Virus record (IMG/VR): IMGVR_UViG_3300025121_000020
Reading direction: 5' to 3' (one strand)
Length of the DNA: 64,000 bases
DNA from: an uncultured virus (IMG/VR IMGVR_UViG_3300025121_000020)
Lineage: Duplodnaviria > Heunggongvirae > Uroviricota > Caudoviricetes
Part shown: positions 1 through 54,602 of the stretch, in pieces
Layout: every line of letters begins with the position of its first letter
How positions within the stretch are numbered: the first letter of the stretch is position 1
Translations under genes and position numbers: made by a program
Notes under the pieces: generated by a model
Told to the model about the DNA's origin: nothing
Databases searched by the model: none
What the model saw: only the letters and a program-made list of their open reading frames with translations

Positions 1-126
1 CGCCTTGGGCTCCGCCTTGGGCTCCGCCTTGGGCTCCGCCTTGGGCTCCGCCTTGGGCTCCGCCTTGGGCTCCGCCTTGGGCTCCGCCTTGGGCTCCGCC
101 TTGGGCTCCGCCTTGGGCTCCGCCTT
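1..126. repeat. 12-nt perfect tandem repeat (CGCCTTGGGCTC x10.5, cut by window edge) encoding AEPK
   Basis: Directly visible; in frame with the minus-strand ORF starting at 2313. Confidence 0.97.
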
Positions 127-2313
127 GAGGGGTTCGATTCGATCGATAAATTGCCTTGGCATGCCCCCGGTACCTATCCTTCCGTTTGGATAGTGGATCA
201 GTGTCTTCACGTAACCAGGTTTAACTTCTGTGAACTCTACGTCTTGGGAAACTCCTTCTTTTGAGTACAATCGATGCGTTGGTCCTGTCGACCCTGTGAT
301 TGTTTGTTGCTCATTGTAGTGCTTTGGCGCTACTTGAGACATGAGTTTCACCAACTGGTTTGCGTCTATCTCAGGTCGCAGACCCCTATCAATAACGAAC
401 TGACTATAAACAGAATCCAATCCCCTCGCTTTGTAATCGGCTGCGAGGTCTGCGGCGGAAGCATATCTACGAGACACTGCGCTCGTGACTTTTACGCCCG
501 AAGATACTGGAAGGTTGCTCCACTCATCCGCAGGTTTCTCCTCTTTTTTCTCGGCAGGTTTACGATCTACCAGATCATGAATCGCCTCTACTTCCTTCCC
601 TCCTACACGAAAAGTATGCTGCGAACCGCTAAGGCGACGCATCTCTAGGTATGTGCCGTTGTTCTCCACATTCACAACTTCAGCATTGTAGGATGGTGCA
701 CCAAACTGCCCCTTAACGCGGACCTTCGATCCAAAGTAGCGCTGCCGATCCTCATACGACACATCCCCAAACGGCTTCTCGCTCGGCACAAAGTCCTTGA
801 CTGCGTTTCCAGTAGGGGTCTCCTCCTCTTTCTCTTTCTCAGGCTTCCATCCCTCCGAGATCATACGCTTGTTCTCATCGTCCAGATCTTTCGCAGAGAA
901 CCCGGTCTTGCGCGCGACGGGGCCGAACATATCGGATCGGTACTCTCCCAACTGCTGTGCGGCTTTGTGCAGAGATTCCGGAGTGGAGCCCTCTTTGGTA
1001 TGGTACGCCTCGAGCGCCTTACGGATGGCGGGATTGCTCTCGAGGGACGTGATAGGAACGGTGCGGGACGTCGCCAGCACGCTCTTCGCGTACTCGATCT
1101 CCGGCTTCGTTTTCAGCAGGTACGACGTTCCTTCCCCCTCGTTCTCCAGAGTCAATGTCGGTATCACCCCCTTCTTTCCCGTCACGGCCTTGACGTGTCC
1201 CCCCGCGATGATCTTGTCGATGAATTCCTTATTCGACATCACCTTCCCGTCGTGGGTCACCTTCTGGTGCTCCAGAGCCCGCACGTTGTTGTCGTGCGCG
1301 CGCTTCTTGCTCCACTCCTCACTCTTCGCGCGCTCCGCCGCGTCGGCTTCTGCAGCCGCCCGGACTCCCTCTTCCCCCACGTGCTTTTGGAGACCCGCCT
1401 CCGTGGACGCTCCGGTCTTTCCCAGCGGGATCCCCGTTTCCTCTTCGAAGAACTTGCGCGACAGGGGGTTCCCGGAGTGCATGTGTTCCGCGAGTGCCTT
1501 GATGTCCTTGCTGCGAATGTGCCCTTCGAGCTTCCCCGCGTGCTTGAGTGCCTTGTGCATCGCGTCGGACTCGACGTGCTCCCCCACCCTGTCCGGCTCC
1601 TGCCCATCCGCGCGGTACTGCTTCACCCAGGAAGACGCGAGTCTGTCAGCGTAGGCTTTCGCGTGGTCTGAGAGGTTCGCCCGCATGCCCGGGATCTCTT
1701 CCAGGCGTCGCGCATGTTCTTTAGCCTCCGCCTCGTTCGCGCGCTTCACCTCTTCGCGGTGTTTCTCTTCCATCCTACGCGTCTGGCGTGCCTGAAGTTC
1801 CTTCGCGGCGGGGTGTTCCGCGTGGAGTGCGCGCAGCTCACCTGTCTGCAGATCGCTTCGCTTGTTTTTCTCCCACTCCAGATCGTTCGCTTCCTCATAC
1901 AAGCGCCGGATCTCGGCCTGGTGTGCTGCCAGCTTCTCAGGCTTGCGGGGCTTCGGTCCCACCTCGAGCGCGCGTGCGTCCTCACGCAATTTACCGGACC
2001 GCTGGCGCATATCTTCCATGGCGGGTCCGTGGGAGTCCTTGATGCGCTTGTCGTGGGACTCGAGTTCGATTTGGAGATCTTCATCGCTGCGATCCGGGTG
2101 ACCCCCTATCTTTTTTTCCCACTCTCGCTTCTTCGCCGCGTCCTGGGTACCCTCGTGGATCTTTCGCATCACTTCCAGGGGCATAGGTTTCGCCGGAGCC
2201 CCGTGACCGTCCACGATGGACCCGATCTTTCCGTCCACAATCGGGACGTGCTTACGGTCTTCTCCCTCTCCGAGGGTGACCCACTTTTCGACGCCGGGAA
2301 AATCTTGTGCCAT
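1..2313 (-). CDS. Large putative head-internal/cargo protein, type-B leader (3'-truncated by window edge, >770 aa; absent from ORF track)
   Basis: ATG at 2313 reads MAQDFPGVEKWVTLGEGEDRKHVPIVDGKIGSIVDGHGAPAKPMPLEVMRKIHEGTQDAAKKREWE, near-identical to the internal module of 2382..7304. The frame appears open to position 1, where it encodes (AEPK)n. Confidence 0.85.
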   Translation of the reverse strand, partial: MAQDFPGVEKWVTLGEGEDRKHVPIVDGKIGSIVDGHGAPAKPMPLEVMRKIHEGTQDAAKKREWEKKIGGHPDRSDEDLQIELESHDKRIKDSHGPAMEDMRQRSGKLREDARALEVGPKPRKPEKLAAHQAEIRRLYEEANDLEWEKNKRSDLQTGELRALHAEHPAAKELQARQTRRMEEKHREEVKRANEAEAKEHARRLEEIPGMRANLSDHAKAYADRLASSWVKQYRADGQEPDRVGEHVESDAMHKALKHAGKLEGHIRSKDIKALAEHMHSGNPLSRKFFEEETGIPLGKTGASTEAGLQKHVGEEGVRAAAEADAAERAKSEEWSKKRAHDNNVRALEHQKVTHDGKVMSNKEFIDKIIAGGHVKAVTGKKGVIPTLTLENEGEGTSYLLKTKPEIEYAKSVLATSRTVPITSLESNPAIRKALEAYHTKEGSTPESLHKAAQQLGEYRSDMFGPVARKTGFSAKDLDDENKRMISEGWKPEKEKEEETPTGNAVKDFVPSEKPFGDVSYEDRQRYFGSKVRVKGQFGAPSYNAEVVNVENNGTYLEMRRLSGSQHTFRVGGKEVEAIHDLVDRKPAEKKEEKPADEWSNLPVSSGVKVTSAVSRRYASAADLAADYKARGLDSVYSQFVIDRGLRPEIDANQLVKLMSQVAPKHYNEQQTITGSTGPTHRLYSKEGVSQDVEFTEVKPGYVKTLIHYPNGRIGTGGMPRQFIDRIEPLKAEPKAEPKAEPKAEPKAEPKAEPKAEPKAEPKAEPKAEPKA

Positions 2314-2331: not shown

Positions 2332-2395
2332 TTACGGTGCCTTACGGTGCCTTACGGTGCCTTACGGTGCCTTACGGTGCCTTACGGTGCCTTAC
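2332..2395. repeat. 10-nt tandem repeat TTACGGTGCC x6.4
   Basis: Directly visible; multiplies the last codons and TAA stop of 2382..7304. Confidence 0.97.
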
Positions 2396-5300
2396 CTAAC
2401 TCTACGTCATCCGGGTGCTCCCAGCTCATGGCGGCCTTCACCGCACGCACTGGCTTCTCCCCGTGCTTCCCTATCTCTTCGGACTGGTCTTTCAGCGACC
2501 AGTCTACCCCCGTCCCCAGCAGCGCGGCTGTTACCTGCTTCCCCTGCGTAGCTGACGCCACTTCCGCAATTCGGGATCCAGTGGGAATGTGCGTCACTAT
2601 GTACCCGGTGTTCCGCGACGCGGCGAACTTCTGCCTGGAAGGGTCATCAGGGTGAGTCTTGTGTACGAGGAAGTGCTCGCCGAAGACTGTTCCCTCTCGC
2701 TCCCCTACTGCGTCCCCGTCGGCACCTCGAAGGGTCGCCTTGCCCTTCTTCCCCTTCATCCCCTCCACCTTCGCGTCGAGCGCCGCGTGCCACTCCCGGG
2801 CCTTATTCTGCCGTCGCTCAGCTTCCACCCGCCGATCTTCCTCCGCCTGTTGAGCTGCGGCTCTCTGCTGGCGGAGCTTTTCCGCGCGCGCCGCAGCGTG
2901 CGGGTGCGTGAAGGTGGTTCCTGCGCCGTGCCTCTCGACGTAGCGCTCTATCGCCTCCTCCGGCGTCTCCTTGTACCCGGACAGAGTAGTTTCCCACGCG
3001 TCGTTGGACCCCTTCGGCCGGAAGTACGTCCCGTGCAGAACGCGACCGTCCTCTTGGTGCGCGGCCTTGACGGCGATCTCGTCCCCGTGCTCGTCGGTAC
3101 CGATCGGCGTGTGGGGGGCCAGGTCAAAGCGCTTCTTTTCGTCGCGGTCGAAGATGGTCTTGCGTAGGCTCTCACTCACTCCCAGATTATCAGGGTGGAA
3201 GGATGTCGCCGGCGCTCCCGATGCGACTGCATCCTGCATGAGTTTCGCATGCTCCTGAACCCACTCCCGGCGGACCTTGGGCCAGCTCCCCATCGTCTCG
3301 TGGTACTCCTTCGCCTTTCGGGCGTTGAGCCAGGCGTCTCGGTCGATGGACTGGACGGGGAGATCTGCGGGAGGGGTGCTCAGCTCTCTCAGGCGGGAGT
3401 CGATCGCGTGGAGGCGGTTGTAGGCCTGCCCTACGTCGACTTTGCGCATAGATTCTGCTTCCCCTGGTCTGGAGTTTTTTACGTGCCACCCGGGACCTGT
3501 GACGTTCTCCCCCATTTGATCCAGTTTATCCGCTGTCATCCCCCGCAGGGATCGAAGCGTCCCCACGTCCGTCATCTTCGCGATCTTCTCTTCATCTGGG
3601 TGCCTGTACTTCTTCAGTTCCTCTGGCACTTCCCAGAGCGGCCCAGAGTCTCGTTTCGCGATCAGATGCTTCGCGAACTCGATCCCAGTGGCCCCGATGT
3701 CCTTTTCCGACAACTGCGTACCGCCCAGCGTGGTCAGCTTTTGGTGCGAGTCGACGCCCTCTACCCAGCGCCCACGTACCTGCATGTGGTACGTCTTGCC
3801 CGTCGGCTCCTCCACTCTCGCCCCCTGCTTCACCATGTCCTTGATGTGCTCGCGTATCGCGTTGTTATTTCCGTCGACCATGGTGTACTTGTCGAGGTGC
3901 CCTACGGCGCGCGCCCTCTGGAGGGGAGACATCTTCTCGTCAAATCCGCTCAGATCTTCGCGTGCCCTCCTGTCCTTCTCTTCCAGCTCGAGCGTCTCCA
4001 GGCGCGCCTTTAGATCCCGCACGTGGTTCGCAGCTCGGGAATCATCGAGCTCCTTCTCTCGGTCGATCTCTGAGACGGGGAGGATCTGGTGAGACTTCGA
4101 CCCGTCCGTTGAGACGAAGAACGACAGCGGGCTCTCCGGAGTCATTCTGCTGGCACGCTCGATCTTGCGTGTCGCGATGTTCCCGGCCGTGGCGGTCTTC
4201 CAGGTCGACCCCACCGTGAGCCCTCCGGGGGATGTGGGTACTTTGTACTCGTCCATGACGTGCTTCGGCACTTCTTTCCCCTCCGCTATGGCTTGGTCCA
4301 CGTGGTAACGGTGCTCCGCGGTCTTCGAGATCGCCCTGCCCGCCGCGCGGACCTTCTTGTCCAGTTCCTGGTAAGTGTCGACGTCACTCGACAGTTCCTT
4401 GTCGCGACCGTACTTGCGCACGTGCTCGAGCGCGTCGTCTGCAGAACCGCGAAGGTGCTCCGACATGTACTTCCGGTACGCAGGGTGCTTCTGGACCTTC
4501 GCCAGCAAGTCATCCCGTTCGCGCTCCATCTGGCGCACGCCCATATCTTCGTACATCTGGTCGCCGTGCGGGTGGGATTTTACCCCGGTCTGCCCGTACA
4601 CGGTGGAAGACTTCTCCCAGGGCTGCAGGTCCTCGTGCAAGACGCGGGTGAAGGCGTCGTCTGCCTCCCGCGATACTTCAGAGTAGCGCGGGTGGGATGG
4701 GTCGACCCCGACGGCTGCGAGCACGTTATCCTTGACGTTGTCCGCGCTAGAACTGCCGTAGCGACCTATGGTCAGGCGGCGCTTCTGGGTCTCGGAACGA
4801 ATCCTGTCTGCTAAGGTAACCCCTTCCGGATGAGCGGCGACTCGCTCCCCCCACTCCGCCTTCTTCTTGGCGTCCACAGTCCCCTCGTGGATCTTACGCA
4901 TCACCTCGAGCGGCATAGGACGAGCCGGTGCACCGTGCCCGTCCACGATGGATCCGATCTTTCCGTCCACGATCGGAACGTGCTTTGCTTCGTCACCATG
5001 ACCGAGGGTGACCCATCGTTCGACACCGGGAATCTCACCCTTCGCCAGCTCCCGTAGCTTCTGGCTTCCCATAGCAGGGATCTGCTTCTTGTTGTCCTCA
5101 CGCTCGAGGATGTGACGCCCGGCTTTGTCGATACCGCGGTAATAGACGCGGTGGCCGGTAGGGGTCTCGTAGAGGGCGTTGAGTCTGGCGGTGGAGGCGG
5201 TGGGGGGAGGTTGGGTCTCCTTCGGCGTCTCCTTCGGCGTCTCCTTCGGCGTCTCCTTCGGCGCAGGTATTTTTAGACCCGGATAATCCTTCAATACATC

Positions 5301-7304
5301 CTCCGGAACAGGTTTCCCTTGCTCTAGCGCCGCAGCAACTTGGCTCCGATGCGTTTGCCGCACTTCCCGCCCGTGCTCAGGTATCGACGTGCTCTTCTCT
5401 CTGCGTGGAGCGTACCACTTCTTTGAGGGTAACTGCATCGTTGGTTCACGTTCGAATCCACCACGTGAGCGCATGATAGGCGGCGCAAGGTGATCTAGTG
5501 CTTCCGGAGTAGCGGCGGACTTGATGGCGGCTGCGTGTTCGGCTTTGGTCATCTGCCAAGCAGGCTTCGCCTCAGCAGGCTTCGCCTCAGCAGGCTTCGC
5601 CGGCTCCTCAACGCTCTTTTCCGCATGCTCCAGGGCGTACCCGATGTCTCCCACCGATGCCGAGTTGCTCAGCCAGTCACTGGGGGCATTCATGTCCTTT
5701 TGAATGCTCTCGGACAGTGCTTCCCAGTGCGGGTGTTTTTGTAACCTTTCTAGCGAACTCTCCCAGTTGATCCCCCATTTCACCCTCTCCCCTTGCGCCG
5801 CCATGAGCCCGCGCTTCGCATCGTCCTCAGAGTCAAAGTGGTGTAGGGCCATACCTGACGCTACGTGCGTCACCGTCCACCTTCCTTCGTCCAGACTCGG
5901 GTGCACGGCCAGCCCTTTGAAGACTTGCGCCGGCTTGGATACCTTTCCGTCCTTCCCGACAACATCGATTGCCTTACTCGCCCACGGAACACGCTTGACC
6001 AGCGCGTCCCACCCCGGCAGGTACTTCTGCTGCCTCTCGTACCCGTTCCGGAGAGAGTAGTGCAGGTTATCTGGAAGACGGCGCATTTTTGCGGCTACGT
6101 CTTCAGGGATGCCCGCGAACTTCTCGTCAGTCTCTGCTGGATACAGGCTCTTCGCCACCATGCGGCGCACGCGCTCATCCTGTTGCCTCACATTCCGGAT
6201 CATGCTGCGCAGTTGATCGGGAGGTAGGGCGTCTATCGCGGCTGGTCCTCCATTCGGACCGTGGCGCTTGAGCGCCTCAGCGTTCCCATTCGTGAGAACG
6301 TCGCCCACGTCGAACGGTAGCGCGTCTTCTTTGAGCCCAGACTTTTCCACCGTCCGCTCGAGCGCGTTGTAGGCGAGGGCGTACTCCTCTTTCAGAGCGG
6401 AGTGGGAGGCGTCCTTGGGGGGAGAAGAGAATTTGTTGTAGATGTCACGATCTGATGGAGAGAAGTAGGCACGCTGTCCGGAGTCGGTAGTGGTGCCTGG
6501 TAACCCCTCCGGGTGCTTCCTCGCGTAAGCTCTCCAGTCCACTTCGAGCGCTAGGCGCCCCGTGCCCTGTTGACGTGGAAGGCCAATCCCTTTCATGATG
6601 TCCCACTGTAGCCCTTGCTCTTTTTGAACGGTAGGGTTGCTCTGGTACGGGCCGCGCACTATACGCACGTGGCTGAGATACTCCAGGGGAGAGCGTGGAA
6701 GAGACGCTCCTATCGATTTTGAGTACCGATCCACCATCTTCTTGAGTTCTGCGAACGCAGGGTGTCCTTCTATCGCGGGGAAGACCTTGTCCTTGTACGC
6801 GTCTATGACCTGTTGTGTGCTCATCCCCTTCGTCGGGTCAATGTACTCGCGCGACACCTTTGGCTGCTCTTCCACCGCCGGTCCCATCCACGTCCACTCC
6901 CTGTGCAATCTCGGTGTCTTCCGCCACTGGTGGAAGATCTTCTGCGGCACCTCCCCCTCGGCAGACGCGATCACACCGTCCCCCTCGTAATGGTGGAAGG
7001 TGGTCTTCTTTCCCCCCACCTCGTGCGTTGACCCATGTTCCGGACGGAGGCCACCCTCGAGCGCCGCGACGACGTGCTGGAGGTGCGTCTTGGAGTCGGG
7101 GTGCTCGGAGATGCGCTTCTCCCATTCTCGCTTCTTCGCTGCGTCCACAGTCCCCTCGTGGATCTTCCGCATCACCTCGAGCGGGGGAGGCGCCGTGTGC
7201 CCACCAACGATCTTCCCGCCCTCTTCGTGCCCACCAAAGATCGGGATCACCTTTCGGTCTTCACCTTCGCCCAGGGTCCGGAATCGCACAGTTTCTTCGG
7301 GCAT
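2382..7304 (-). CDS. 1640-aa polyvalent-type putative head-internal protein with two type-B leader modules
   Basis: Long ORF with AGGAG SD. The leader module occurs at the N-terminus and again near aa 760. Also two 'H..V..A...GK.VP..V..Y' modules, a duplicated 'VTH..[ST]G' module, and KETP and AEAKP repeats. Confidence 0.85.
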   Translation of the reverse strand: MPEETVRFRTLGEGEDRKVIPIFGGHEEGGKIVGGHTAPPPLEVMRKIHEGTVDAAKKREWEKRISEHPDSKTHLQHVVAALEGGLRPEHGSTHEVGGKKTTFHHYEGDGVIASAEGEVPQKIFHQWRKTPRLHREWTWMGPAVEEQPKVSREYIDPTKGMSTQQVIDAYKDKVFPAIEGHPAFAELKKMVDRYSKSIGASLPRSPLEYLSHVRIVRGPYQSNPTVQKEQGLQWDIMKGIGLPRQQGTGRLALEVDWRAYARKHPEGLPGTTTDSGQRAYFSPSDRDIYNKFSSPPKDASHSALKEEYALAYNALERTVEKSGLKEDALPFDVGDVLTNGNAEALKRHGPNGGPAAIDALPPDQLRSMIRNVRQQDERVRRMVAKSLYPAETDEKFAGIPEDVAAKMRRLPDNLHYSLRNGYERQQKYLPGWDALVKRVPWASKAIDVVGKDGKVSKPAQVFKGLAVHPSLDEGRWTVTHVASGMALHHFDSEDDAKRGLMAAQGERVKWGINWESSLERLQKHPHWEALSESIQKDMNAPSDWLSNSASVGDIGYALEHAEKSVEEPAKPAEAKPAEAKPAWQMTKAEHAAAIKSAATPEALDHLAPPIMRSRGGFEREPTMQLPSKKWYAPRREKSTSIPEHGREVRQTHRSQVAAALEQGKPVPEDVLKDYPGLKIPAPKETPKETPKETPKETQPPPTASTARLNALYETPTGHRVYYRGIDKAGRHILEREDNKKQIPAMGSQKLRELAKGEIPGVERWVTLGHGDEAKHVPIVDGKIGSIVDGHGAPARPMPLEVMRKIHEGTVDAKKKAEWGERVAAHPEGVTLADRIRSETQKRRLTIGRYGSSSADNVKDNVLAAVGVDPSHPRYSEVSREADDAFTRVLHEDLQPWEKSSTVYGQTGVKSHPHGDQMYEDMGVRQMERERDDLLAKVQKHPAYRKYMSEHLRGSADDALEHVRKYGRDKELSSDVDTYQELDKKVRAAGRAISKTAEHRYHVDQAIAEGKEVPKHVMDEYKVPTSPGGLTVGSTWKTATAGNIATRKIERASRMTPESPLSFFVSTDGSKSHQILPVSEIDREKELDDSRAANHVRDLKARLETLELEEKDRRAREDLSGFDEKMSPLQRARAVGHLDKYTMVDGNNNAIREHIKDMVKQGARVEEPTGKTYHMQVRGRWVEGVDSHQKLTTLGGTQLSEKDIGATGIEFAKHLIAKRDSGPLWEVPEELKKYRHPDEEKIAKMTDVGTLRSLRGMTADKLDQMGENVTGPGWHVKNSRPGEAESMRKVDVGQAYNRLHAIDSRLRELSTPPADLPVQSIDRDAWLNARKAKEYHETMGSWPKVRREWVQEHAKLMQDAVASGAPATSFHPDNLGVSESLRKTIFDRDEKKRFDLAPHTPIGTDEHGDEIAVKAAHQEDGRVLHGTYFRPKGSNDAWETTLSGYKETPEEAIERYVERHGAGTTFTHPHAAARAEKLRQQRAAAQQAEEDRRVEAERRQNKAREWHAALDAKVEGMKGKKGKATLRGADGDAVGEREGTVFGEHFLVHKTHPDDPSRQKFAASRNTGYIVTHIPTGSRIAEVASATQGKQVTAALLGTGVDWSLKDQSEEIGKHGEKPVRAVKAAMSWEHPDDVELGKAP
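5215..5262. repeat. 12-nt x4 in-frame repeat (KETP)
   Basis: GTCTCCTTCGGC x4. Confidence 0.95.
5559..5601. repeat. 15-nt x~3 in-frame repeat (AEAKP)
   Basis: AGCAGGCTTCGCCTC repeated. Confidence 0.9.
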
Positions 7305-24760: not shown

Positions 24761-24782
24761 TATCCCCAGAGGTACCGGTACT

Positions 24783-32569: not shown

Positions 32570-33693
32570 CCCGCGATCCTCTTCACTATTGCGTGGTACC
32601 TCTTGAACACATCGAGCATGCTCCCGCCGTTTCTCTTCACCAGGTACAGATTCGCGTCTCTCGCGTCCGCTGCCTCCTTCATCAGGACATCCCGCATTTC
32701 CAGATCCTGGAGTATACCATCAGACGCGTCTTCCAGCAGCTCCCACTGTGCGTCGACCTGATCCTGCGTCGTCCCGACCCAGGGAGACAACACGTCATCA
32801 GGATTATGCCCGTTATCTTTGACGAGCATCCTCACGTGAGAGATATCATCCTCCACTTGCCACTTCCCCGCCAGTCCCTCTTTCAATTTACCAACTTTCC
32901 CCAGATCGTACTGATGCGGAACACCGTCCTTGAGCCCCACCTGTATCTGGTCGTTCACGGCGTACCCAGCCGCATGCATCGCCTCCACGCCGGCGAGAAC
33001 GGCATGCAACTGGTCGGCGGACAACTTCGTCTTCGTGTCCAGGTGAGGCTGGATCTGAAACGCCTTGTCCCCGTGCACCCTCGTCTCGATTGGCAAGACC
33101 CCGGGTATCCCGATCCGGTGCATCTCGTTGTGCACGCGAGACTGTTCGAGCATGCGCTGCTGCGCGTCTCCCGGGCTGCGATGGTAGTCGTTCATTGGCT
33201 GGTAGGGGACGGTGGTGCTGACCTTGACCACGTGGTCGCCCACGCGGAAGGCGAGCCCGTCGTCGCCGCGCCCGAGGTACTCCCCCTCCCCGCGCAAAAC
33301 GGCGTTGACGCGAGGGTCTGCGCTATTCGGCGTCCCCGTCACACGACCGGAAAGATCGTCCACGAAGTGACGCATGGACTCGCGGGGCATGGACACGCCA
33401 CCTTCGGCGCGATCGGCGTAGTTGACTCGGATCCGATCCGGAGTGACCTCCGTGACGCGCATCGGGACGGGGGAGTGGTCCCGAGGGCTAGGGATAGAAA
33501 AGACCGTGTCGACTGTCCAACGGCCGTCGGAGTCGCGGGGCTCGGAGGAGTCGAAGCCCTTCTCGAGCGCGTGTGATCGCTCTCTGAGCCCCCTCACGGC
33601 CAACTGCGCCGTAGTCGGCATAACGGGGTCCTCCCCCTCCTGCGTCCCGTCCAGGATCGTCCCGTCCTCTAGCGTGATGCTGAATCGCCTCAT
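32566..33693 (-). CDS. Protein-kinase-like protein with KGF..PRD..GRW motif
   Basis: YLGRGDDGLAF Gly-loop, VVKV lysine, H..G...ND, YDLG (DFG-like); catalytic loop divergent. Confidence 0.65.
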   Translation of the reverse strand: MRRFSITLEDGTILDGTQEGEDPVMPTTAQLAVRGLRERSHALEKGFDSSEPRDSDGRWTVDTVFSIPSPRDHSPVPMRVTEVTPDRIRVNYADRAEGGVSMPRESMRHFVDDLSGRVTGTPNSADPRVNAVLRGEGEYLGRGDDGLAFRVGDHVVKVSTTVPYQPMNDYHRSPGDAQQRMLEQSRVHNEMHRIGIPGVLPIETRVHGDKAFQIQPHLDTKTKLSADQLHAVLAGVEAMHAAGYAVNDQIQVGLKDGVPHQYDLGKVGKLKEGLAGKWQVEDDISHVRMLVKDNGHNPDDVLSPWVGTTQDQVDAQWELLEDASDGILQDLEMRDVLMKEAADARDANLYLVKRNGGSMLDVFKRYHAIVKRIAG

Positions 33694-44007: not shown

Positions 44008-44035
44008 CGTCTACTTCCTCCCTGTTCAAAGGAAG

Positions 44036-44064
44036 ACATTACATCAAAGTAGCACAAATGTCAA
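44036..44064 (-). promoter_or_regulatory. Sigma70-like promoter upstream of Zn-finger gene and tmRNA
   Basis: TTGACA-N17-TAATGT preceded by CTTAAAAA. Confidence 0.6.
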
Positions 44065-44088
44065 CAACTCTTTTTAAGAAAGTGTACC

Positions 44089-47000: not shown

Positions 47001-47562
47001 GGGCGCTGAATTGCTGCTCTGTCATCTGGTGGGGAGGTTTCCGAGAGTCCTGGATCTCCCGCATCTTCTCGAGGCCTCCTTTCTTCGGATAGAGCACACC
47101 ATCTTCATCCAAACGACGCACCAGTGCCTTGTACCTCTTCATATCCAGGTCTGGAGTGGTTTGCTTGAACTCTATGAGCTTCTGCATCCGATGCGTCCAC
47201 GCGTTCGGATCCTTTGCGTCATAATACGTCGCGAGTGCGCGCTCGAACACGATGCCGTCCAAAGGTATCTTCAACTCTTCGGAAATCGCTCGCAACTTTT
47301 CTTCCGAAGCAGGAGCCAGGTCTCGTCTGGAAGGCTCGCTCACTTGTGTCCCCAGCTTCCCCTCCCACGCAGCCTTCTTCTCCGGATCCCTCGTCCCCGC
47401 GTGGATCTTCTCCATCACATGTTTCGGCGGGTCTCCCCTCGGCACGCCCTTCCCGTCCTCTATGTGACCGATCTTCCCGTCCACGATCGGGATGTGCTTG
47501 ACGGTCTCCCCCTCTCCTACACTCACCCAACGGTCTACGTTCTCTAGTTTCGAGTCTGGCAT
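44089..47562 (-). CDS. 1157-aa type-B leader protein
   Basis: DRWVSVGEGETVKHIPIVDGKIG...VMEKIHAGTRD..KK..W; PHQMT and H..HV..AI.RG.PVP module. Confidence 0.85.
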   Translation of the reverse strand: MPDSKLENVDRWVSVGEGETVKHIPIVDGKIGHIEDGKGVPRGDPPKHVMEKIHAGTRDPEKKAAWEGKLGTQVSEPSRRDLAPASEEKLRAISEELKIPLDGIVFERALATYYDAKDPNAWTHRMQKLIEFKQTTPDLDMKRYKALVRRLDEDGVLYPKKGGLEKMREIQDSRKPPHQMTEQQFSAHVKNAIGALQTVDRSELKPGMKVVSSQSGKDIAPGGVYEVEKVSPSGHTVTMRFKSLSGDVDHSFTLSQTADKKEPWKFQVATPELLALAGRHESHVKKAIERGDPVPPEVMRGHLELALEHGLPTADPATVQEYAKHVANMTPEEFRDVLTDAYLDTGHPFRQKIRAMGNTEEAKELVAEAAARGDAERDAFRGVYGDVGGWASRHSFNTLDLAKVHAHAVGMLRKERPSSEVSRDVESLQQDASKLRQHATYTDAEYEDGGDLDPEKYAAQMRRLGLSDPAKLTLQSFLNQHVTGDGVASHMVHPFKSSRTAELESDLRAAEKAFPGATTSPGGQVVKEKRAAYRESLDRDYERAKGQHQVFVERANRHHPALEKMYEYARQWGKQGDVSTHRAASSAYDVWDQEHYWRMQIAAGRIGTGEDPETVAREEGSKLKDWIRGFNSKQEERSKAWMKAFKKTPLYHTSPTAGPGAAVGESEADDAMRHVLTMYRKATEENGVPSDSDRATAKRLDVEAREKNRLKQEDALRKPAPVSDAPVEAAPGSIPEGIRKKIEELAQKEHGPFSEESVSELSPFNLDTHLRIARQQKRDAGKARSPDAIVATALREHRWTVRPEEREAMHRHAAYHVGKQQVLAKDRLHDLESAKKATAPTSGKALQDRQNENARQLVPPHTFNHDAGHGVGDTITHPNNAEWWSDGRNIRLVKHAPKGRGPADSQFSDQRIGEYIRKAAETSKPSKVMGVRADSESGPVVHVETEAGTQARFPAHQFMSVMQHGDRVTSQGMDGPAVIWKGEQIVGAVSPMKSKPHQLVRKGAQPEKRVTDRERAADALEKVGEFGTGGALRDLVGVPDEKVKAETKRGMWVHENAERNPEYLRIQERVTRQGKKKYELPDVGVGADTLAGARVRAATLEALADTRVPVKDIPRADLEAWNDAREDMKRGSSVEHPDKYLERRGRPVSDRVKALAR

Positions 47563-47565: not shown

Positions 47566-50500
47566 TTACCCGCCCTTCAACTTCTGCTGTCGCATAGCGG
47601 TGGCATGCTCACGCCTCGCCTCCGCTCGCTTCGGATGCGTGTGAACTTCCTGTTGTTCGCGCGCCACACTCGCCCCCTGGTTCCTGGCTTCCTCTACCTT
47701 GTCCACGGGCACCCTGTAACGCTTCGGGGCCTTGTACCCGTACGTCCCCAGGGGGGTGGCTCCATCCACTCTGAGGGTATTACGCCTCCCCTCCTTGTGG
47801 TTCATCACCACGTGAGAAGCTTCAGACTGCGCCTTCTTCGCGTACTCGTCCGCCGACATCGTGTGGAGGGGGACCCCGTCAGCCCCCACCATGTCCGGCG
47901 CACTTCGAAGCTTCTCGTTCTCTGCCGCGAACGCTCGCTGCATCTCACGATTACGCTCCGCTTCTGCCTCCCTATCCTTCTCTCGTCCGCGCTCCCGGTC
48001 TGCTGCCTCCTGCTTCTTCCTCTCGTACCGCTCCTTGTGCTGCTGCAACTCGGCCTTGTAGGCTTCCTTCCCCTCCGGAGTCCAGTCACGGACCACTTGT
48101 TGCCACTTTGCCGCGCGGATCTCCGGCAGCTCTTCTTTCGGTCTCGCCTCCTCAAATGCCCCAACGGCATTCGGGTGCGTCACCTTCACCGCGGCGTTGC
48201 CGGCATGCTTGCGGGCGAAAGCCTGCACGGCGTCTTCCTTCGACGGGTACCAGTGCTGCTTCTCCCCCGCGACTTCGTCGCCGTCGTCGTTCACCTCGAG
48301 CGGTGCACCCGGCTCCGGGTGCACCTCCCACTCGCCACCGCGCTCCCCCTGCGTCCGACGATGCACGGCATACTCTTTGCCTCCCAGACGGTGGTTGCGC
48401 CCCCGCATAGCCAGATCCACCTTCCTCGCCGGCCGTCCCCCTCCCCCGAACAAGCCGATCTGCCTCTCTTCCGGCACGGATTCTGAGCCGATCAGAGAGT
48501 GGTATTGCGGGTAGTCCTCTTCTCCCAGGTGCTTCGTCTTGAACTCGACGTGCCTCTTGACTTGTTGCTTCTCGAATTCTCCTTCCCGCTCCCGCAGTTC
48601 CGAGGGTGTCAGCTTCGACATCTCGACATCTGTCTCCCCGAACTCATCCGGACCAACGAGACCCGCCTCCATCATCCCGCGGTGGTACTTACCCGCCTCC
48701 TTCCCGAAGTCCTTCGCCGTGGCATGCTCGGCATCGTCTCGAGCTCGAGCGGTATCCTTCACCCCCCAGGCTGCCTTCACGGCACTGACGAAGTGCTCGG
48801 GGGAGTCGAAGTCTACGGCAGGGTCGCCTTCGTAGGCGTCCTCGAGCATAGCCTGCGCCTCGGACTCCGCCTCGTTCGCGTCAACGGCCGTAAACTCCCC
48901 CAGTGCCTTCGCGACCGCCTCATCCTGCCGCTTACTCCTCCTCTCCCCCATCTCCCGATCCAGTTTCGTCTTCTCCGAAGTCCCCTCGAGCGGGTTCCCT
49001 GTCGCCCTGTGGAACTCGTCATAGTACCCGTGCCCAGGGTGATTGGCATGATTCGGGTCGAAACGATTGTACGGCTTGTTCCCGGTGATCCCCTCGTGAG
49101 GCAGCGCCTTCACCTCGAACGTTCCGGACCGGATGGCTCTGTCAATCTCAGTCTTCTCCGCTCGAGTCGCCGGAGCGTACGACGCGAGATTTTTCCCCTG
49201 CGCAGGGTGCAAGCGGACGATCTCCCCGTTCTGCCACGCGTAGCGCCCGCCACCGTCAACGATCTGCCCCACTACCCGCCGCTGCGACGGGAAGGGGTCC
49301 GACTCTGATAGGCGCTGCCACTCGCCGAAGATGTCGTCGGAATCCTTACCGAGGGAAGGGACGCGGGCGCCGTACTCGTTGGTGTAGTCGTGGGCGTGGG
49401 CAGCTTGCTGCCAGGCATCGCCGGACTCCGTACGCTGCTGCTTTCTCTCATCCCTCCGTCTGTTTATTTCTTGCACTGCTGGGTGCTCGTTGTGCAGTCT
49501 CTCCATCTCCGCGTCCCTCGCCGCGCTCAGCTTCTCCGCTCGGTCCGCCAAATCCCCGCGGCGCTTCGGATCTGTGGTGGCGCTCGCGTAGTCCTGCAGT
49601 CTCCCGATGCGAGAGTTGAAATTGTTCTCCGCATTCGCCAGAGCGTTACCGTGCGCCCGATCGAGATCCTCACGTGACATAGACTTGGCGTCCCCCTGCA
49701 GAGGTCCTTCCGCGTAGTCCTGTCGGATCTGTTTCAGCATATCCGGAGCGCTTACCGCATGACTTGCGCGTAATTCAACTTCCTTCCAGTAATTCTCTGC
49801 CCGCTGCAACGCTGCGTGCTCGGCGCGATCCTTCTGGTGTATGAATTTCTTCGCCTCCCCGGTAAGCGGATCGTATTTTTTCCCGTCCACCAGGTCCTGC
49901 TTCGAGTACATCGCGCGTTCCCACCTGTCCTTCGCGTGAAGTCGCAGCCTCTCCATGGCCTCCGGGGAGCCCGCATGCTGCTCGAGCAACTCTTCGGGCA
50001 TCGCAGTTGGAGGCAGCAACTTGGAGTCAATTTCAGCCCCCGCCATACTCGCGGAGGGTTCGCGGTCACGCGCTGACCCGAAGCGATCGTGAAACGCGGA
50101 GCCCGCGCGCTCATACTCCCCGAGGTTCCGCATCCCGCTCTTGAAGTCCGGAGCACCAGGCGCGGGGAGCTCCCCCGCCCGCTTCAAGAAGTCCTTCCGA
50201 TCTTGGATGTCCTTCGCTCTTTTCCGATCCGCCAGCATCGCTTGGTGCGTCGCACGAATGCGCTTCTCACGCGCGGGAAGTGCAGTTTCGTACTTCTCGC
50301 CGCCAGGGAGGTGCGCCTTCGCCTCCTCTATCCGAGCAGCGATGCTACGTTCCTCTTGCGTCTCAGCACGCTTTCCGCGCTTCGCACGAAGCTTCTCGAG
50401 CTCCTGCGTGGCAGTATCTATGTACCCCTGCACGCGCGTCCCCTCAGACACGTGGTGCTTCTCGAGCTCTTGCTTCGTGTACTCGTCTTCGGACGGCTCG

Positions 50501-50931
50501 TGGGAGCTGCGTCCCGCGATCTTCCTCACAATCTCCTCATGCTTCTCCGGATCCGCATAGGTGATCTTCGAATCCTTCGTGAGGGGGATCACGTGCTTGT
50601 TTCCCTCCTCCCCCACCGTAATCCACCCTTTGATCTCACTCTCCGGGACGCGCTTCTCCCCTTTGAGCATCTCTGCTACCGTATCCGCGCGCAAGACCAC
50701 GTGAACGCCATCCGGGAGGCCCTTCTCTACCGGCACCACCTCCATGTGGCGAGAGGAGGGGTCGATCCAGTTCGGGACTGTCAGTCCCCCTGCGTGGAGA
50801 GCTGTCGCCACTGCCTGGCACACCTCCCGATACTCCGCGACCGACAGATTGGGACGGTTGAGCGGCGACTGGTACTGCGCCGCCATGTCCACGGCCTCAC
50901 TGGTGGTCATCTGCATAGTATCTCCGATCAA
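47566..50931 (-). CDS. 1121-aa protein with hybrid A/B leader
   Basis: EMLKG-EKRVPESEIKGWITVGEEGNKHVIPL...KHEEIVRKIA. Confidence 0.85.
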   Translation of the reverse strand: MIGDTMQMTTSEAVDMAAQYQSPLNRPNLSVAEYREVCQAVATALHAGGLTVPNWIDPSSRHMEVVPVEKGLPDGVHVVLRADTVAEMLKGEKRVPESEIKGWITVGEEGNKHVIPLTKDSKITYADPEKHEEIVRKIAGRSSHEPSEDEYTKQELEKHHVSEGTRVQGYIDTATQELEKLRAKRGKRAETQEERSIAARIEEAKAHLPGGEKYETALPAREKRIRATHQAMLADRKRAKDIQDRKDFLKRAGELPAPGAPDFKSGMRNLGEYERAGSAFHDRFGSARDREPSASMAGAEIDSKLLPPTAMPEELLEQHAGSPEAMERLRLHAKDRWERAMYSKQDLVDGKKYDPLTGEAKKFIHQKDRAEHAALQRAENYWKEVELRASHAVSAPDMLKQIRQDYAEGPLQGDAKSMSREDLDRAHGNALANAENNFNSRIGRLQDYASATTDPKRRGDLADRAEKLSAARDAEMERLHNEHPAVQEINRRRDERKQQRTESGDAWQQAAHAHDYTNEYGARVPSLGKDSDDIFGEWQRLSESDPFPSQRRVVGQIVDGGGRYAWQNGEIVRLHPAQGKNLASYAPATRAEKTEIDRAIRSGTFEVKALPHEGITGNKPYNRFDPNHANHPGHGYYDEFHRATGNPLEGTSEKTKLDREMGERRSKRQDEAVAKALGEFTAVDANEAESEAQAMLEDAYEGDPAVDFDSPEHFVSAVKAAWGVKDTARARDDAEHATAKDFGKEAGKYHRGMMEAGLVGPDEFGETDVEMSKLTPSELREREGEFEKQQVKRHVEFKTKHLGEEDYPQYHSLIGSESVPEERQIGLFGGGGRPARKVDLAMRGRNHRLGGKEYAVHRRTQGERGGEWEVHPEPGAPLEVNDDGDEVAGEKQHWYPSKEDAVQAFARKHAGNAAVKVTHPNAVGAFEEARPKEELPEIRAAKWQQVVRDWTPEGKEAYKAELQQHKERYERKKQEAADRERGREKDREAEAERNREMQRAFAAENEKLRSAPDMVGADGVPLHTMSADEYAKKAQSEASHVVMNHKEGRRNTLRVDGATPLGTYGYKAPKRYRVPVDKVEEARNQGASVAREQQEVHTHPKRAEARREHATAMRQQKLKGG

Positions 50932-53900
50932 AGTGTTTTCTCGAATTCCTTGAGCCTGGGTAGTAACGCCCTCAATTCTCTGACCTGGTCGTCCCCGCTC
51001 TCCTCTAACTGCTTCTCCTTACCGAGGAGAATCGCGTCTTCCGTGGCACGCTTTCGCGTGTGTAGATCCTCGATATGCGCATCCATAGGATCGTCCATAA
51101 GAGGCTTCATCATGAGCGTCTTATGTTGCTGTCCAGGACGATACACGCGCGCCGTTGCCTGGTCTTCAACTTTAGGGTTCCAGTGGCTCGAAAGGTGGAT
51201 TACTGCACTGGAATTCTTTTGCAGATTAAGTCCCAACCCACCGGCTCGAACGTTAATTAGCGCTACCGGAACTTCCCCCGCGTTGAACCCATCCTGAATC
51301 TTGTCGCGCTTCTTTTGTGGAGTATCCCCCGTGATCAACCCGAAGTGCTGCTCTCCCAGCCCCGCGTTGCCATCCTCGTCTTCCTTCATGAGCTCACGCT
51401 GCAACAATGGGAAGGCGCCGTTAAACTCGCAGAAAACGGCGATTCCCTGCCCCGGGTTCGACTTTAGGTGGTCGCGGATAGCCTGCGCTGCAGCTTCGAT
51501 CTTGGGCGCGGGTCCGGTATAATTTCGGTCGACCAACTCCGGAGAGATACCCACCTGCCGGAGGCGAAGAAGCGCAGTCAAGATATTCTTCTTCTGCTTC
51601 TTGTCGCTCGTGTCAACTCGGGCGGCCTCCGCGTCGAAGTCAATCGTGTCGTCAGCACCAGCCAACCTCTCGAGCGCAGTAGCGGTTTCATCACTCGGCG
51701 AACTGTTGATCGCATCTATCGCGTCCGCAACCGCCGCGCGATAGTAGGGACGCTGCTCGTTCGCGATGCTCAGTTTCGGCTTTTCCGTCACCAGTGGCGG
51801 TAAATGGATTCCCACTTCCGGATCGCGAAGCTTGCGCATGATGAAATAGGGCTTGAGCTGCTCGTGCAACTGCTCGAGATTTTTGGACCCCACGATGCGA
51901 TCGTGCCCCCCTACGCTCTTTCGGATCAGATAACGATCCTCGAACGTCTTCCGATCCCCGAGGACCGCCGGGTCAACGAGCTGCATGAGCCTGTAGGCTT
52001 CCCGCGGGTCGTTCGGGACCGGAGTAGCCGTGAGCAACTTGAAGTGCCCCTTGTTGAAGAACTGTCGCACAGCTCCGAAGCGCTTCCCCTTCACCACGCC
52101 GGAAGTCAATTCCTCCATCGCGTCGTCACCCCCGCTCTGGATCTGCGCCTTGAACTTTCGCCAGGTATCAGTCAACGTCCACTGCCTGTGGATCTTATCC
52201 TCCCGGTACATCTTTTTCCGAACTTCCGACGTCATCCCCGGTACCGCAGCCTCCCCACGGAACATGACGGAATCCGGCGCATTCTGGAGGAACGTTGCCT
52301 CCATCAGCGTCATCTTCGCCTTAACGGCAGAGGACCCCCCTTTGAGGGAGTGCGCCTCGTCAACGAACTTCGCGACCCGCTCGCCGCCGCACAACTCGCC
52401 GATGAGCGGTCCGTCCTCTTTCTGGATGATCATGGAGTCCGGCACGAGCAGGAAGTCGAACCCGTCCCTCTTCGCCTTCTCGTACACGGCGCGACGTTGT
52501 GCCGCAGTCCCGGCCCACTCCAGTATGCGCGCCTTGGGTGCGAATTTCTGGAGCTCGTCGCGCCAATTCTTGAGCAGGGAGGGTGGGTGTAAGATAGCGG
52601 AGCCATCTACTTCCCCGCGATGCTTGAGCAGAAGCGCAGCGTTGATTGTGCTTAAAGTTTTTCCCAGCCCCATCTCGTCAAAATCACTACAGCGTTTTGC
52701 TTCTGCCATAAAATTCACAGCTTGCGCCTGATATGGTCGAACTCCCGCCTGTTTTGCCGTTCCGGGGATAGGCTGACCGCTACTGTCTCGCTCATACGTC
52801 GTCGGATCGACGTGCTTCATCTTCGGGTCGAGCAAACCCCCTTCGAATTCTGGCATCATGTGCACAGTCGTGTCTCGCTTGGCACTCTCCATGCGATTCA
52901 CCGCAGCGGCACGATCGGCCTCCGCGCTCTCCCTCTTCTCTTTCCGTTCCCTCCAATCCTTGACCAGCGGAGACTCCTTGCCGTCTCGCTTCGCCGCCAG
53001 AAGTGCTGAGGCGATCTCAGCCATTCCGGGGGACTTCTCGCGCATCCCGGGGTCCGTCGCGTAGAATTCTATCGACCGTGGCTTCTCCTTCCAGAGATCC
53101 CCCCAAGTGACGTCAGCGTACTTGCTGGCTCCGCCGATCTTAACGTTGTCCCAGGGGGTCTCGAGTTCTTTTGTAAAGGCTTTCGGGGGCACTACCTCCT
53201 TCTTCATCACGACAGGCTCGATACCCTTCACGTGTGCGTCCAATACGGCTTTCGCCGCTTCCAACCTCTCCCCTTTGAAATCAGCGCTCGGCGTCGTCAT
53301 CCACTCCAGGTACCCAGGATTCGTCTTGGCAAGTTCCTTCCACGTTTTATCCCGATGCTGCCCGAACCCAACCTTCCTGTCATCCCACGGCGTACTGAAA
53401 ACTTTCTTCCCCTCCTTAGCCGCCTGTTCCCCTTCCTCCCTCTTCTCGACCTCCCTCCGCGCCTGTTCCTTGAACTTCTCCCTCGCGCTTTCTCCCACCT
53501 CCGGAAACTTCGCGCTGAGGTCATCGAACGCCTTCCGCTGCCCCTCCGTCTTGCCCGCCATGCTCTCCTGGAACAGCTCCTCAGCCCGGGCCTTGACCTT
53601 CTCGTTCGTCGCCCGCTGCTTCTCTGTTGCCTTTCCCACCGCATCCCTGACAGATGCCGACAGGGCAAACCCGTGCCGCTCTGCCCAATCCTCCAGACCT
53701 CCCAGGGGGTCCTCTCTGGACAAACCCCGCACCAGATCCGCCACGCTGCCGACGATCTTGCGCTTGCCCCCGTTCCACCGCGCTCCGAACGCCCCCCTCA
53801 CCTGGCTGTTTAGGTACTCGTCGTAGGGATAGTCGAACAGTACGGATCCGTCCTTCCCGATCGAGACGCCCTTGTGCCCGCGCTCCCCCTCCCCCTCCGG

Positions 53901-54602
53901 CATCTCGATGTCCGCGAGTGAGATGCCGTGCTGCTTCTTGTACTTCTTGAGCAGATACTTCGCTCGCTCCCAGTCCGACGGAGTCCAGTCCTCCTCCGGC
54001 GTGCTCGCCAGGTGCCCGCCGATGCCCTTGTCGCTCCCGTCCCACCCCACGTCATCCTTCTCGTTCGCGTGCCCGCCACTGGAGTCACGGTGGGCGTCTA
54101 TGTCGGAGAGGATGGATTGGGCGCTGTGCTTCTCGGGTGCGGGGGGTACTACCGCAGGCTCGAGCTTAGCCGCCCTCTTCTCCGCAACATCCTTCGCCAA
54201 CCCCGTGCTGTTTTCGGCCACCTTCCCCGCGATCTCCCGGTGCTTCGCAAGGGCGTCTCCCTCGAGCACAATCTCCTGATCCTTCAGGCGCTTCAAAGAC
54301 TCCTCGTGCTCCTTTAACTCAGCCTGAGTAGGATTAGCCTTCGAGTGACCTGGGTGCCAGTCGGGGTGGACGCGCGCGACGACGCGGTCTTTCCCCACCG
54401 ACACGTGCTTGATCGGTACGCGAGATCGGTGCGCCGCGTCTGGAGAGGAAGCACCCGACGGCATGGTGATCCAACCGTCGATATCAGCGTCTGGAATGAG
54501 GCCCTTGAGGGCATCTTGGGTAAGGTGAACGTGCACGGTGGCCTCCAACAGCAGGTAAGCGTGTCCTGCCGTGAGCGTGCCATATTTTTGTTGAGTAGTC
54601 AA
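50928..54602 (-). CDS. Type-A leader fused to SNF2-family helicase (start uncertain)
   Basis: ALKG-LIPDADIDGWITMPS; RPYQ, DEMGLGKT, VDEAH, LLTATP, GLGLNLQ, QATARVYRPGQ; HARP-like 'F.YPYD...GARWN' and 'FGQHR...PGYLEW' modules. Confidence 0.9.
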   Translation of the reverse strand: MTTQQKYGTLTAGHAYLLLEATVHVHLTQDALKGLIPDADIDGWITMPSGASSPDAAHRSRVPIKHVSVGKDRVVARVHPDWHPGHSKANPTQAELKEHEESLKRLKDQEIVLEGDALAKHREIAGKVAENSTGLAKDVAEKRAAKLEPAVVPPAPEKHSAQSILSDIDAHRDSSGGHANEKDDVGWDGSDKGIGGHLASTPEEDWTPSDWERAKYLLKKYKKQHGISLADIEMPEGEGERGHKGVSIGKDGSVLFDYPYDEYLNSQVRGAFGARWNGGKRKIVGSVADLVRGLSREDPLGGLEDWAERHGFALSASVRDAVGKATEKQRATNEKVKARAEELFQESMAGKTEGQRKAFDDLSAKFPEVGESAREKFKEQARREVEKREEGEQAAKEGKKVFSTPWDDRKVGFGQHRDKTWKELAKTNPGYLEWMTTPSADFKGERLEAAKAVLDAHVKGIEPVVMKKEVVPPKAFTKELETPWDNVKIGGASKYADVTWGDLWKEKPRSIEFYATDPGMREKSPGMAEIASALLAAKRDGKESPLVKDWRERKEKRESAEADRAAAVNRMESAKRDTTVHMMPEFEGGLLDPKMKHVDPTTYERDSSGQPIPGTAKQAGVRPYQAQAVNFMAEAKRCSDFDEMGLGKTLSTINAALLLKHRGEVDGSAILHPPSLLKNWRDELQKFAPKARILEWAGTAAQRRAVYEKAKRDGFDFLLVPDSMIIQKEDGPLIGELCGGERVAKFVDEAHSLKGGSSAVKAKMTLMEATFLQNAPDSVMFRGEAAVPGMTSEVRKKMYREDKIHRQWTLTDTWRKFKAQIQSGGDDAMEELTSGVVKGKRFGAVRQFFNKGHFKLLTATPVPNDPREAYRLMQLVDPAVLGDRKTFEDRYLIRKSVGGHDRIVGSKNLEQLHEQLKPYFIMRKLRDPEVGIHLPPLVTEKPKLSIANEQRPYYRAAVADAIDAINSSPSDETATALERLAGADDTIDFDAEAARVDTSDKKQKKNILTALLRLRQVGISPELVDRNYTGPAPKIEAAAQAIRDHLKSNPGQGIAVFCEFNGAFPLLQRELMKEDEDGNAGLGEQHFGLITGDTPQKKRDKIQDGFNAGEVPVALINVRAGGLGLNLQKNSSAVIHLSSHWNPKVEDQATARVYRPGQQHKTLMMKPLMDDPMDAHIEDLHTRKRATEDAILLGKEKQLEESGDDQVRELRALLPRLKEFEKTL

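Follow-up and report, generated by a model that had tools for sequence, protein, structure and literature searches.

A repeated module at the unit starts of polyvalent-type proteins in an uncultured tailed phage: a candidate head-cargo address

In bacteriophage T4, the capsid targeting sequence forms a common N-terminal element on unrelated head-internal proteins (IPI-III, Alt), and this short leader is removed at a fixed motif (PMC9024508, PMC5694885). In phage P1, the N-terminal 30 residues of DarB suffice to package a reporter, and the accessible part of the same work finds no consensus among the Dar N-termini (PMC9024508). Several inner-head and ejection proteins of phiKZ and SPN3US have common N-terminal regions of about 125 residues and long propeptides; SPN3US gp53 and gp54, whose propeptides are about 125 residues long, begin with the same 15 residues, and the number of inner-head paralogues varies between giant phages (PMC5694885). 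Head packaging has also been proposed for polyvalent proteins (Iyer, Burroughs, Anand, de Souza and Aravind, 2017, J Bacteriol; PMC5512222). Here we describe a 64,000-nt stretch of DNA from an uncultured member of the Caudoviricetes (IMG/VR record IMGVR_UViG_3300025121_000020), referred to below as the window. Twelve of its minus-strand open reading frames (ORFs), about 11,850 aa in sum and together called the arsenal, lie by a portal-like gene, and 10 of them carry copies of a repeated module that we read in the light of the head-protein precedents (PMC5694885, PMC9024508, PMC12810830).

The arsenal is like the phage-type polyvalent proteins in stringing together unrelated effector domains (SNF2, zincin peptidase, LPD1 and InPase), and in its DarB-like neighbour and its position by the portal-like gene. 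Polyvalent proteins are recognised by at least two unrelated domains in one polypeptide, and such combinations are found in p42993, p21028 and p54602 (arsenal proteins are named after the position of their start). Judged by the signature domains matched, namely LPD1, InPase, SNF2 and the DarB-like neighbour in the window and DarA_C in a relative (P0009), the payloads are of the phage polyvalent-protein kind. The arsenal is, however, spread over about 12 genes, whereas the phage-type class has one giant protein, and its modules begin units, whereas the accessible part of PMC5512222 describes no common unit-start element. Packaging, injection and zincin processing have been proposed for the phage-type proteins (PMC5512222), and a similar route is proposed here for the arsenal.

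With T4 the locus has in common the principle of one N-terminal element on unrelated proteins, here a 15-residue leader on two otherwise unrelated genes. The window module has no sequence likeness to the T4 and P1 signals, is folded and 60-130 aa long, and also occurs internally; its plain consensus differs from the P1 Dar N-termini, for which the accessible text reports none (PMC9024508). The long propeptides of SPN3US head proteins, identical in part, resemble the window modules. The phiKZ and SPN3US proteins are, however, 30-kDa body proteins with PF12699 and an S/A/G-x-E cleavage motif, whereas the window proteins are large enzymes with a different conserved motif and no PF12699: at E values up to 0.01 this family matches none of the 12 proteins, and even at E up to 5 it is not matched in eight of the 12 or in the portal-like ORF.

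Modules, units and payloads

Among the arsenal proteins, all-against-all BLASTP finds module A in p54602 (residues 25-149), p42993 (1-134), p39487 (1-133) and p32569 (1-115), and a fifth, internal copy in p37454 (residues 464-572), with E values of 1e-81 to 1e-21. Module B is found in p47562, in p2313 and twice in p7304 (3-65, and internally at 757-818), at E values of 1e-32 to 7e-7. Hybrid modules lie in p50931 (78-139) and internally in p21028 (834-886). Module profiles were also searched against all 935 six-frame ORFs of the window, among which a profile of A copies only finds the p50931 hybrid at E 0.0036. A reading made earlier from the letters alone (the sequence-only reading) had assigned module A to five proteins, as BLASTP and profiles now agree, module B to three, and two hybrids to p50931 and ORF 20989 (internally in the latter); all these assignments stand, and p7304 holds two B copies, so that there are four. 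In total there are 11 copies in 10 proteins. Eight lie at or near an ORF start, as the earlier description of the modules as leaders has it, and three are internal, to which that description does not apply. An additional hairpin mini-copy occupies residues 126-150 of p37454.

In a joint alignment A, B and hybrid copies fall on one colinear plan with a hairpin loop of varying length. The plan consists of a short amphipathic peptide ending in K-G, then [IV]-P, W-[IV]-T, the variable loop, H-x-P-[IV] and a helix, which reads K-H-R-E-I-x-K-[IV]-A in A and V-M-x-K-I-H in B. The K-G-ended peptide precedes the A copies, the hybrids and the internal B copy, and the N-terminal B copies start immediately behind the place of K-G. 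Two relatives (P0010, P0011) fall between A and B, both in the length of the loop and in the sequence of the helix. The charge of the modules is close to neutral, and DNA repeats of families D2-D5 and D12 tie the copies together, with identities of 63 to 89%. Between p39487 and p42993, identity reaches 71% over 189 aa, and there is no relation beyond. A second junction motif, E-K-G-F-D followed after a few residues by R-D-x(2,3)-G-[KR]-W, occurs at three sites, in p37454, in p33693 and at the boundary between the EncFtn-like ORF and p21028.

An AlphaFold2 model of the module A of p39487 (from 10 sequences; pLDDT 77.8, pTM 0.66) has three helices after a small sheet; in the sheet, the W-[IV]-T and R-V-P-I strands are paired across a loop that is poorly defined. 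Foldseek searches with this model against PDB and BFVD returned nothing at E <= 0.001, a wide VIA-align search gave a best Z of 2.9, and the ESM Atlas gave no usable match. The module is thus without a known fold in these searches.

All 12 ORFs of the sequence-only reading are present at the starts that it gave. They are listed here, together with the DarB-like gene that lies among them.

50928..54602, minus strand: p54602; module A (DNA 54153-54539), then SNF2 helicase
47566..50931, minus strand: p50931; hybrid module (DNA 50497-50700), payload without family match
44089..47562, minus strand: p47562; module B (DNA 47338-47562), payload without assigned family
39484..42993, minus strand: p42993; module A (DNA 42589-42993), (EPKV)n repeat, HEWAH zincin (CLCA_X-like), LPD1
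37457..39487, minus strand: p39487; module A (DNA 39086-39487), payload without assigned family
33690..37454, minus strand: p37454; N-terminal unit with hairpin mini-copy (DNA 37005-37079) and EKGFD..RD..GKW motif, continued by internal module A (DNA 35736-36071), then HELGH peptidase
32566..33693, minus strand: p33693; 375 aa, EKGFD..RD..GRW near the N-terminus, no module
30119..32569, minus strand: p32569; module A (DNA 32246-32569), then HEIGH peptidase paralogous to that of p37454
24783..29936, plus strand: DarB-like methylase-helicase; 1717 aa, no module, phrog_10089 at E 3.8e-267
20986..21528, minus strand: EncFtn-like gene; 15-residue leader (DNA 21484-21528), second h-x-K-G, EncFtn domain (DNA 21139-21372)
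16580..20989, minus strand: p21028; N-terminal RD..GKW motif, InPase, internal hybrid module (DNA 18344-18553)
2382..7304, minus strand: p7304; two units, each opening with module B (DNA 7095-7304 and 4830-5072)
1..2313, minus strand: p2313; module B (DNA 2089-2313), ORF continuing beyond the window edge

Eight of the 12 ORFs are packed in one block (54602-30119), where neighbours overlap by 4 nt or stand a few bases apart, and the sole break is a 1.1-kb gap at 42994-44088. This gap, between p47562 and p42993, holds one sizeable ORF only (43630-44007, minus strand), which encodes a 125-aa, Cys-rich, zinc-ribbon-like protein. The EncFtn-like start at 21528 is an internal ATG of ORF 21579-20986. 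ORF 20989, whose protein is called p21028 here, most likely begins with a GTG, which overlaps the stop codon of the ORF before it (GTGA). Since the two ORFs overlap in this way, they are coupled genes and not one broken gene; a frameshift joining them was considered and rejected for the same reason.

The module is rare in sequence collections. A profile of all 11 copies, searched against 1.84 billion representative proteins, finds 14 at E <= 0.001: four are exact window ORFs, two are at least 99.5% identical, one is a fragment 95.6% identical to p2313, and seven are more distant. Scans of IMG/VR with the A1, A2 and portal queries found no relatives, and queries with module A, module B and EncFtn had no tblastn match in INPHARED. 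A pattern scan of 185,579 species genomes found four stretches encoding relatives, assumed to be the window's own copies, and nothing further; a metagenome candidate (L002) was rejected as a spurious off-frame match. Module-bearing relatives sit on contigs of 158 kb (P0009), 127 kb (P0005) and 44 kb.

The relatives show what the module delimits. In all six relatives with a single module it lies within the first 12 residues. P0005 and P0006 match the window in module A only, and hence carry new payloads. In three cases, gene fission or fusion has taken place exactly at module boundaries: P0008 corresponds to residues 471-1251 of p37454 and opens at module A; P0009 opens at the module that is internal in p7304, with a DarA_C domain directly after it; and P0026 is a p2313-like unit (73% identity over 650 aa) fused to a second module-B unit. 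A further relative, the polyvalent protein P0014 (2413 aa), has a RadC-like and an InPase domain, and a profile (A3) finds five module-like stretches between its domains; the order InPase then module is kept in p21028 and P0014. The module marks the start of a unit, units occur singly or strung together, and the same module is carried on unrelated payloads. No cellular-looking context and no match to a characterised domain were found for the modules; the sequence-only reading had named a characterised non-virion domain, or occurrence mainly in cellular genes, as what would count against its idea, and neither emerged from these searches.

The payloads proposed by that reading fared unevenly. 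Its SNF2, LPD1, InPase and ferritin-like domains are confirmed by family matches: p54602 has SNF2 and Helicase_C behind a 590-aa N-terminal part, p42993 has a HEWAH zincin (CLCA_X, 6.8e-31) and LPD1 (6e-19), and p21028 has InPase (8e-26) and further regions. It had counted two metallopeptidases, whereas HExxH occurs in three proteins (p42993, p37454 and p32569). Nor do all payloads differ, as it had claimed, since p37454 and p32569 have a common HExxH peptidase region with 31% identity over 511 aa. For its two ARTs and its kinase-like protein, Pfam, PHROGs and NCBIfam give no such family. No family could be assigned to the payloads of p50931, p47562, p39487, p33693, p7304 and p2313, and in p50931 and p33693 the same three scans found none at all.

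The EncFtn-like protein matches PF22277 (1e-23) and TIGR04535 (3.6e-21). Against solved EncFtn chains it matches at 6.7e-15 (3k6c), 1.7e-11 (5n5f) and down to 1e-8, with EEL and EEIEH aligned, and a word-based homologue search with EncFtn gave no match. The E..ExxH metal-binding motif is kept in the domain. Around the domain lie an N-terminal extension of 70 aa and a C-terminal one of about 50 aa. The first 15 residues are common to this protein and p32569 (14 of 15 identical) and are encoded on a 61-nt DNA repeat of 89% identity (D12). After this leader come a K-H-R-E remnant and then a second h-x-K-G directly before the ferritin domain, and the protein ends in an EKGFD motif. Encapsulin shells and phage capsids have the HK97 fold in common. 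An EncFtn-type domain with E..ExxH kept is found both in encapsulin cargo and in the arsenal. Its putative address is N-terminal here and of a kind peculiar to the phage, whereas that of encapsulin cargo is C-terminal, and an encapsulin system has a shell gene, whereas no encapsulin shell family was recognised among the window ORFs scanned (some small ORFs lay outside the scan).

Portal context and a short hairpin tag

Upstream of the arsenal and co-oriented with it lies a portal-like gene, followed by three small ORFs.

55833..57890, minus strand: portal-like gene; true start probably near 57794, C-terminal ADKAV repeats
54679..55825, minus strand: three small ORFs between portal and arsenal, at 55825-55433, 55436-55035 and 55038-54679 (Cys-rich)

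The portal-like ORF matches the annotated portal of Morganella phage Mecenats66 (tblastn, E 1e-8), which adjoins that phage's terminase gene. A profile of the ORF and seven homologues matches PDB 8q7d (chain 8q7d_p, 'Portal protein') at E 7.5e-8 over 281 residues. The ORF itself has no Pfam or PHROG match, and its AlphaFold2 model (pLDDT 48) is too poor for a fold search, so that the portal identity rests on sequence evidence only. One of its homologues (P0016) lies on a contig of about 185 kb. In its C-terminal tail, a 15-nt tandem unit in frame (55886-56004) encodes (ADKAV)n.

The three small ORFs have no family matches. A 2.7-kb metagenome contig (L001) carries a portal C-terminus (53% identity), small ORFs and the start of a module-A gene, and two of the three small ORFs have homologues there in the same order (34% and 45% identity). 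The earlier placement of the arsenal downstream of, and co-oriented with, the portal is thus supported by the portal-like gene and by the order kept on this contig. The window, we propose, covers the head-morphogenesis side of the genome of a large tailed phage that is uncultured. In place of window ORF 55825-55433, the contig has a gene (571-1242, plus strand) for what by eye is a CHAP/NlpC-P60-like hydrolase.

A shorter element, widespread in phages, may connect the module with other phages. The relative P0014 also holds short hairpins, W-[IV]-T-[IM]-R-G-x-H-[IV]-L, a pattern that we take to be a motif of phage proteins. For the related tag W-V-T-I-(N)-G-x-H-V-x-I, the pattern W-V-T-I-x-G-x-H-V-x-I was back-translated and searched in IMG/VR with the reversed pattern as control, which gave 116 exact matches against none for the control. 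Flanks that the pattern leaves unspecified are conserved: the tag is preceded by acidic residues and G-[HRN] and followed by [DG]-[ED]-x-G, and its fifth position is N in 62% of the distinct 36-residue contexts. The tag is N-terminal in 19 of 99 distinct contexts, where fewer than 50 aa separate it from an upstream stop; several of these tags begin at ORF residue 3 to 9.

DNA around tags was taken from four IMG/VR records, and three of the five stretches (L120, L121 and L123) were annotated with Pfam. In L123 the tag is the joint between a lambda-family portal domain (E 9e-81) and a Kinase-PolyVal domain. In L120 it occurs in a MuF-containing protein and in the neighbour of that protein, where it is preceded by a P-R-D-x-x-G-R-W motif and K-G. 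In L121 (3704-20000) it lies at residues 52-62 of five paralogous proteins of about 300-450 aa, which flank terminase and portal genes, with a DUF2213 protein downstream; this is an independent arsenal that uses the canonical tag. Four of the L121 tag proteins were scanned and had no Pfam match, and no Pfam family of four L120 and L123 tag proteins or of P0014 covers the tag position. Placed at portal-payload and MuF joints, the tag is a good candidate for a general rule. MuF- and portal-fused effectors thus carry a related tag, whereas by Pfam the 12 window proteins are without MuF (PF04233) or portal domains.

Both elements are linked in P0014, which holds canonical tags (tag profile E 6e-7 and 4e-5) together with window-type modules. 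On motif resemblance, the window modules look like loop-expanded versions of the short tag; this resemblance and the co-occurrence in P0014 suggest a weak tie between the two. BLASTP of the tag-contig proteins against the 12 window proteins found nothing. In cultured phages, tblastn with short tag contexts found nothing, which short queries or the complexity filter may explain, and a longer query gave one weak match that lies outside the tag. The short tag appears to be unreported: 'WVTING' has no full-text literature match, although a similar motif could be given in the supplementary material of the papers cited.

What the module may do

The best-supported reading, to which we give about even odds, is that the module is a head-cargo address or joint like the capsid targeting sequences of T4 and P1; it is suggested by its place at unit starts, by the swapping of payloads, by fission and fusion at its boundaries, by the portal context and by the spread of the related tag at portal and MuF joints. 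The module would act as a handle that recruits each unit to the procapsid during assembly, through docking to a partner inside the head, which may be scaffold, portal or capsid lining. Units would then be carried in the virion and ejected along with the DNA, and strings of units may be cut at the Lys-Gly junction by a head protease or by the HExxH peptidases of three of the proteins. Procapsid binding, packaging, cleavage and ejection are steps that we infer from the genes; for cleavage, which is possible, the one pointer is the position of the K-G junction. Such a head address is not new in kind, given the targeting sequences of T4 and P1 and the long N-terminal propeptides of giant phages; distinctive here are a folded, repeated module at each unit start, the apparent tie to the tag and the presence of an EncFtn-type member. 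Should the module indeed be a loading handle, sequence would tell which cargo the heads of uncultured phages carry, and foreign proteins could be directed to the capsids of many phages, which to our knowledge has so far been possible only for T4 and P1.

A broader form of this idea is tentative, and we hold it to be rather improbable: modules and short tag might together be one general and hitherto undescribed head-cargo code of tailed phages, which loads any protein behind the handle into an HK97-type capsid and loads an EncFtn-type ferritin too. Such a handle could stand by itself, be repeated along a polyprotein, or be attached to portal and MuF proteins. If true, the general code and the ferritin would provide a living example of a viral capsid that carries an enzyme as cargo, and would link phage heads to encapsulins. 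It has been suggested that procapsids could house enzymes as cargo and that roles pass between encapsulins and phage capsids (PMC13669383); an EncFtn-type ferritin with a phage's own leader bears on this idea.

Several observations weigh against the module as a head-cargo address. Three window copies and five stretches of P0014 are internal, so that a plain N-terminal address is too narrow; either a free N-terminus is not needed or processing must be assumed. The earlier picture of a reusable module before arbitrary effectors is supported by the swapping of payloads. Homology between A and B is not significant (hhalign probabilities of 1% and 6%), with two weak colinear pairwise matches, at the hairpin (E 0.049) and at the helix (E 0.0066). 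The tag profile finds no window module (best E 0.96), and the module-B profile matches tag contexts only weakly (E 0.015 to 0.07 among about 190 sequences). Being neither basic nor similar to any known fold, the module gives no hint of a binding partner. In the window, Pfam and PHROG scans recognised no capsid, scaffold, protease or terminase gene, and tblastn against INPHARED found no cultured phage that carries the module. The module profiles do not match the DarB-like gene, which, if packaged, must use another signal. Outside the modules h-x-K-G is not enriched (22 against 19.4 +/- 4.3 in shuffles), and a general h-x-K-G cleavage code in the payloads was rejected on that ground; K-G as a general feature upstream of the canonical tag was likewise rejected, as it is found in 11 of 99 contexts, about as expected.

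The internal copies and the K-G junction could also be accounted for if the module were a processing joint only, that is, a recognition and cut site at or near Lys-Gly for a prohead protease or for the proteins' own HExxH peptidases, with head loading decided elsewhere. Internal copies coincide with the gene boundaries of relatives, N-terminal B copies begin right after K-G while the internal B copy retains the preceding peptide, a second h-x-K-G stands directly before the EncFtn domain, and three proteins have HExxH; metallopeptidase domains have moreover been proposed to process polyvalent proteins into units (Iyer et al., PMC5512222). A cut site needs only a few residues, however, and not a conserved folded module of 60-130 aa, and most copies are N-terminal, where there is nothing to separate. 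As the motif is not enriched elsewhere either, and K-G is not general for the canonical tag, we consider a pure processing role unlikely. We regard it as decidedly unlikely that the module acts after injection, as an adaptor for a host factor or the incoming DNA or by keeping the effector inactive until release, with no role in head loading. The model is small and beta-rich with helices and has a faint likeness to SH3-, Tudor- and PH-like adaptors, but at Z <= 2.9 these likenesses are at noise level. Diverse effectors with one common targeting domain are a pattern known from toxin systems; the module is, however, near neutral and not DNA-binding in character, and this reading does not account for why the related tag sits at portal and MuF joints.

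Common 5' parts could, on the other hand, be mere remnants of recent duplication, kept as recombination homology or for translation start and without function at the protein level. The DNA repeats between copies (63 to 89% identity; D2-D5, D12) and the tight coupling of genes by 4-nt overlaps agree with this. The residues K, G, W, T, P and H are nevertheless invariant across copies that are only 40 to 57% identical, and in distant relatives, so that protein conservation outlasts DNA similarity; the internal copies are conserved too, and P0014, from another source, has the same arrangement. Neutral paralogy is in our judgement very doubtful. Least credible of all is a conjugative or other non-viral element in which the module is a secretion or transfer signal, and we give this hardly any weight. 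Polyvalent proteins do occur on conjugative elements, the RadC-like domain of P0014 is listed as typical of these (PMC5512222), and no capsid gene was recognised in the window. Yet a portal-like gene is present in a conserved neighbourhood, the InPase and DarB-like domains are of phage type, and none of the ORFs scanned matched a relaxase or type IV secretion family.

Neighbouring genes and repeats

The window has a G+C content of about 60%. Next to the eight-gene block lies a plus-strand block (about 22500-29936) with a DNA-binding protein, a radical SAM enzyme and the 1717-aa DarB-like methylase-helicase, followed by the coupled pair of EncFtn-like ORF and p21028. After p21028 comes a mixed stretch with TnpB, PP2C and a MopE-repeat protein, and then p7304 and p2313. 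The TnpB or IS605 OrfB-type gene (9241-10485, minus strand; phrog_506, E 8e-116) lies between arsenal members, which suggests an insertion. Adjoining the PP2C-type phosphatase gene (11494-12138) are direct repeats (12142-12346 and 13289-13486; 76 nt at 89% and 59 nt at 76% identity, spaced by about 1.14 kb), probably reflecting a local gene duplication.

Within the arsenal, a 12-nt tandem unit in frame encodes (EPKV)n in p42993 (42248-42430), and a similar repeat lies at the C-terminal end of p2313 (8-139). Upstream of the portal-like gene, 59121-61490 (minus strand) encodes a 789-aa fusion of Macro, DUF4326 and SLOG/YpsA-like domains. Divergent from the portal operon, an open-ended ORF (62838-63998, plus strand) has three internal repeats of about 130-150 aa (DNA repeat family D9) and a weak match to phrog_32934, a family of unassigned function.

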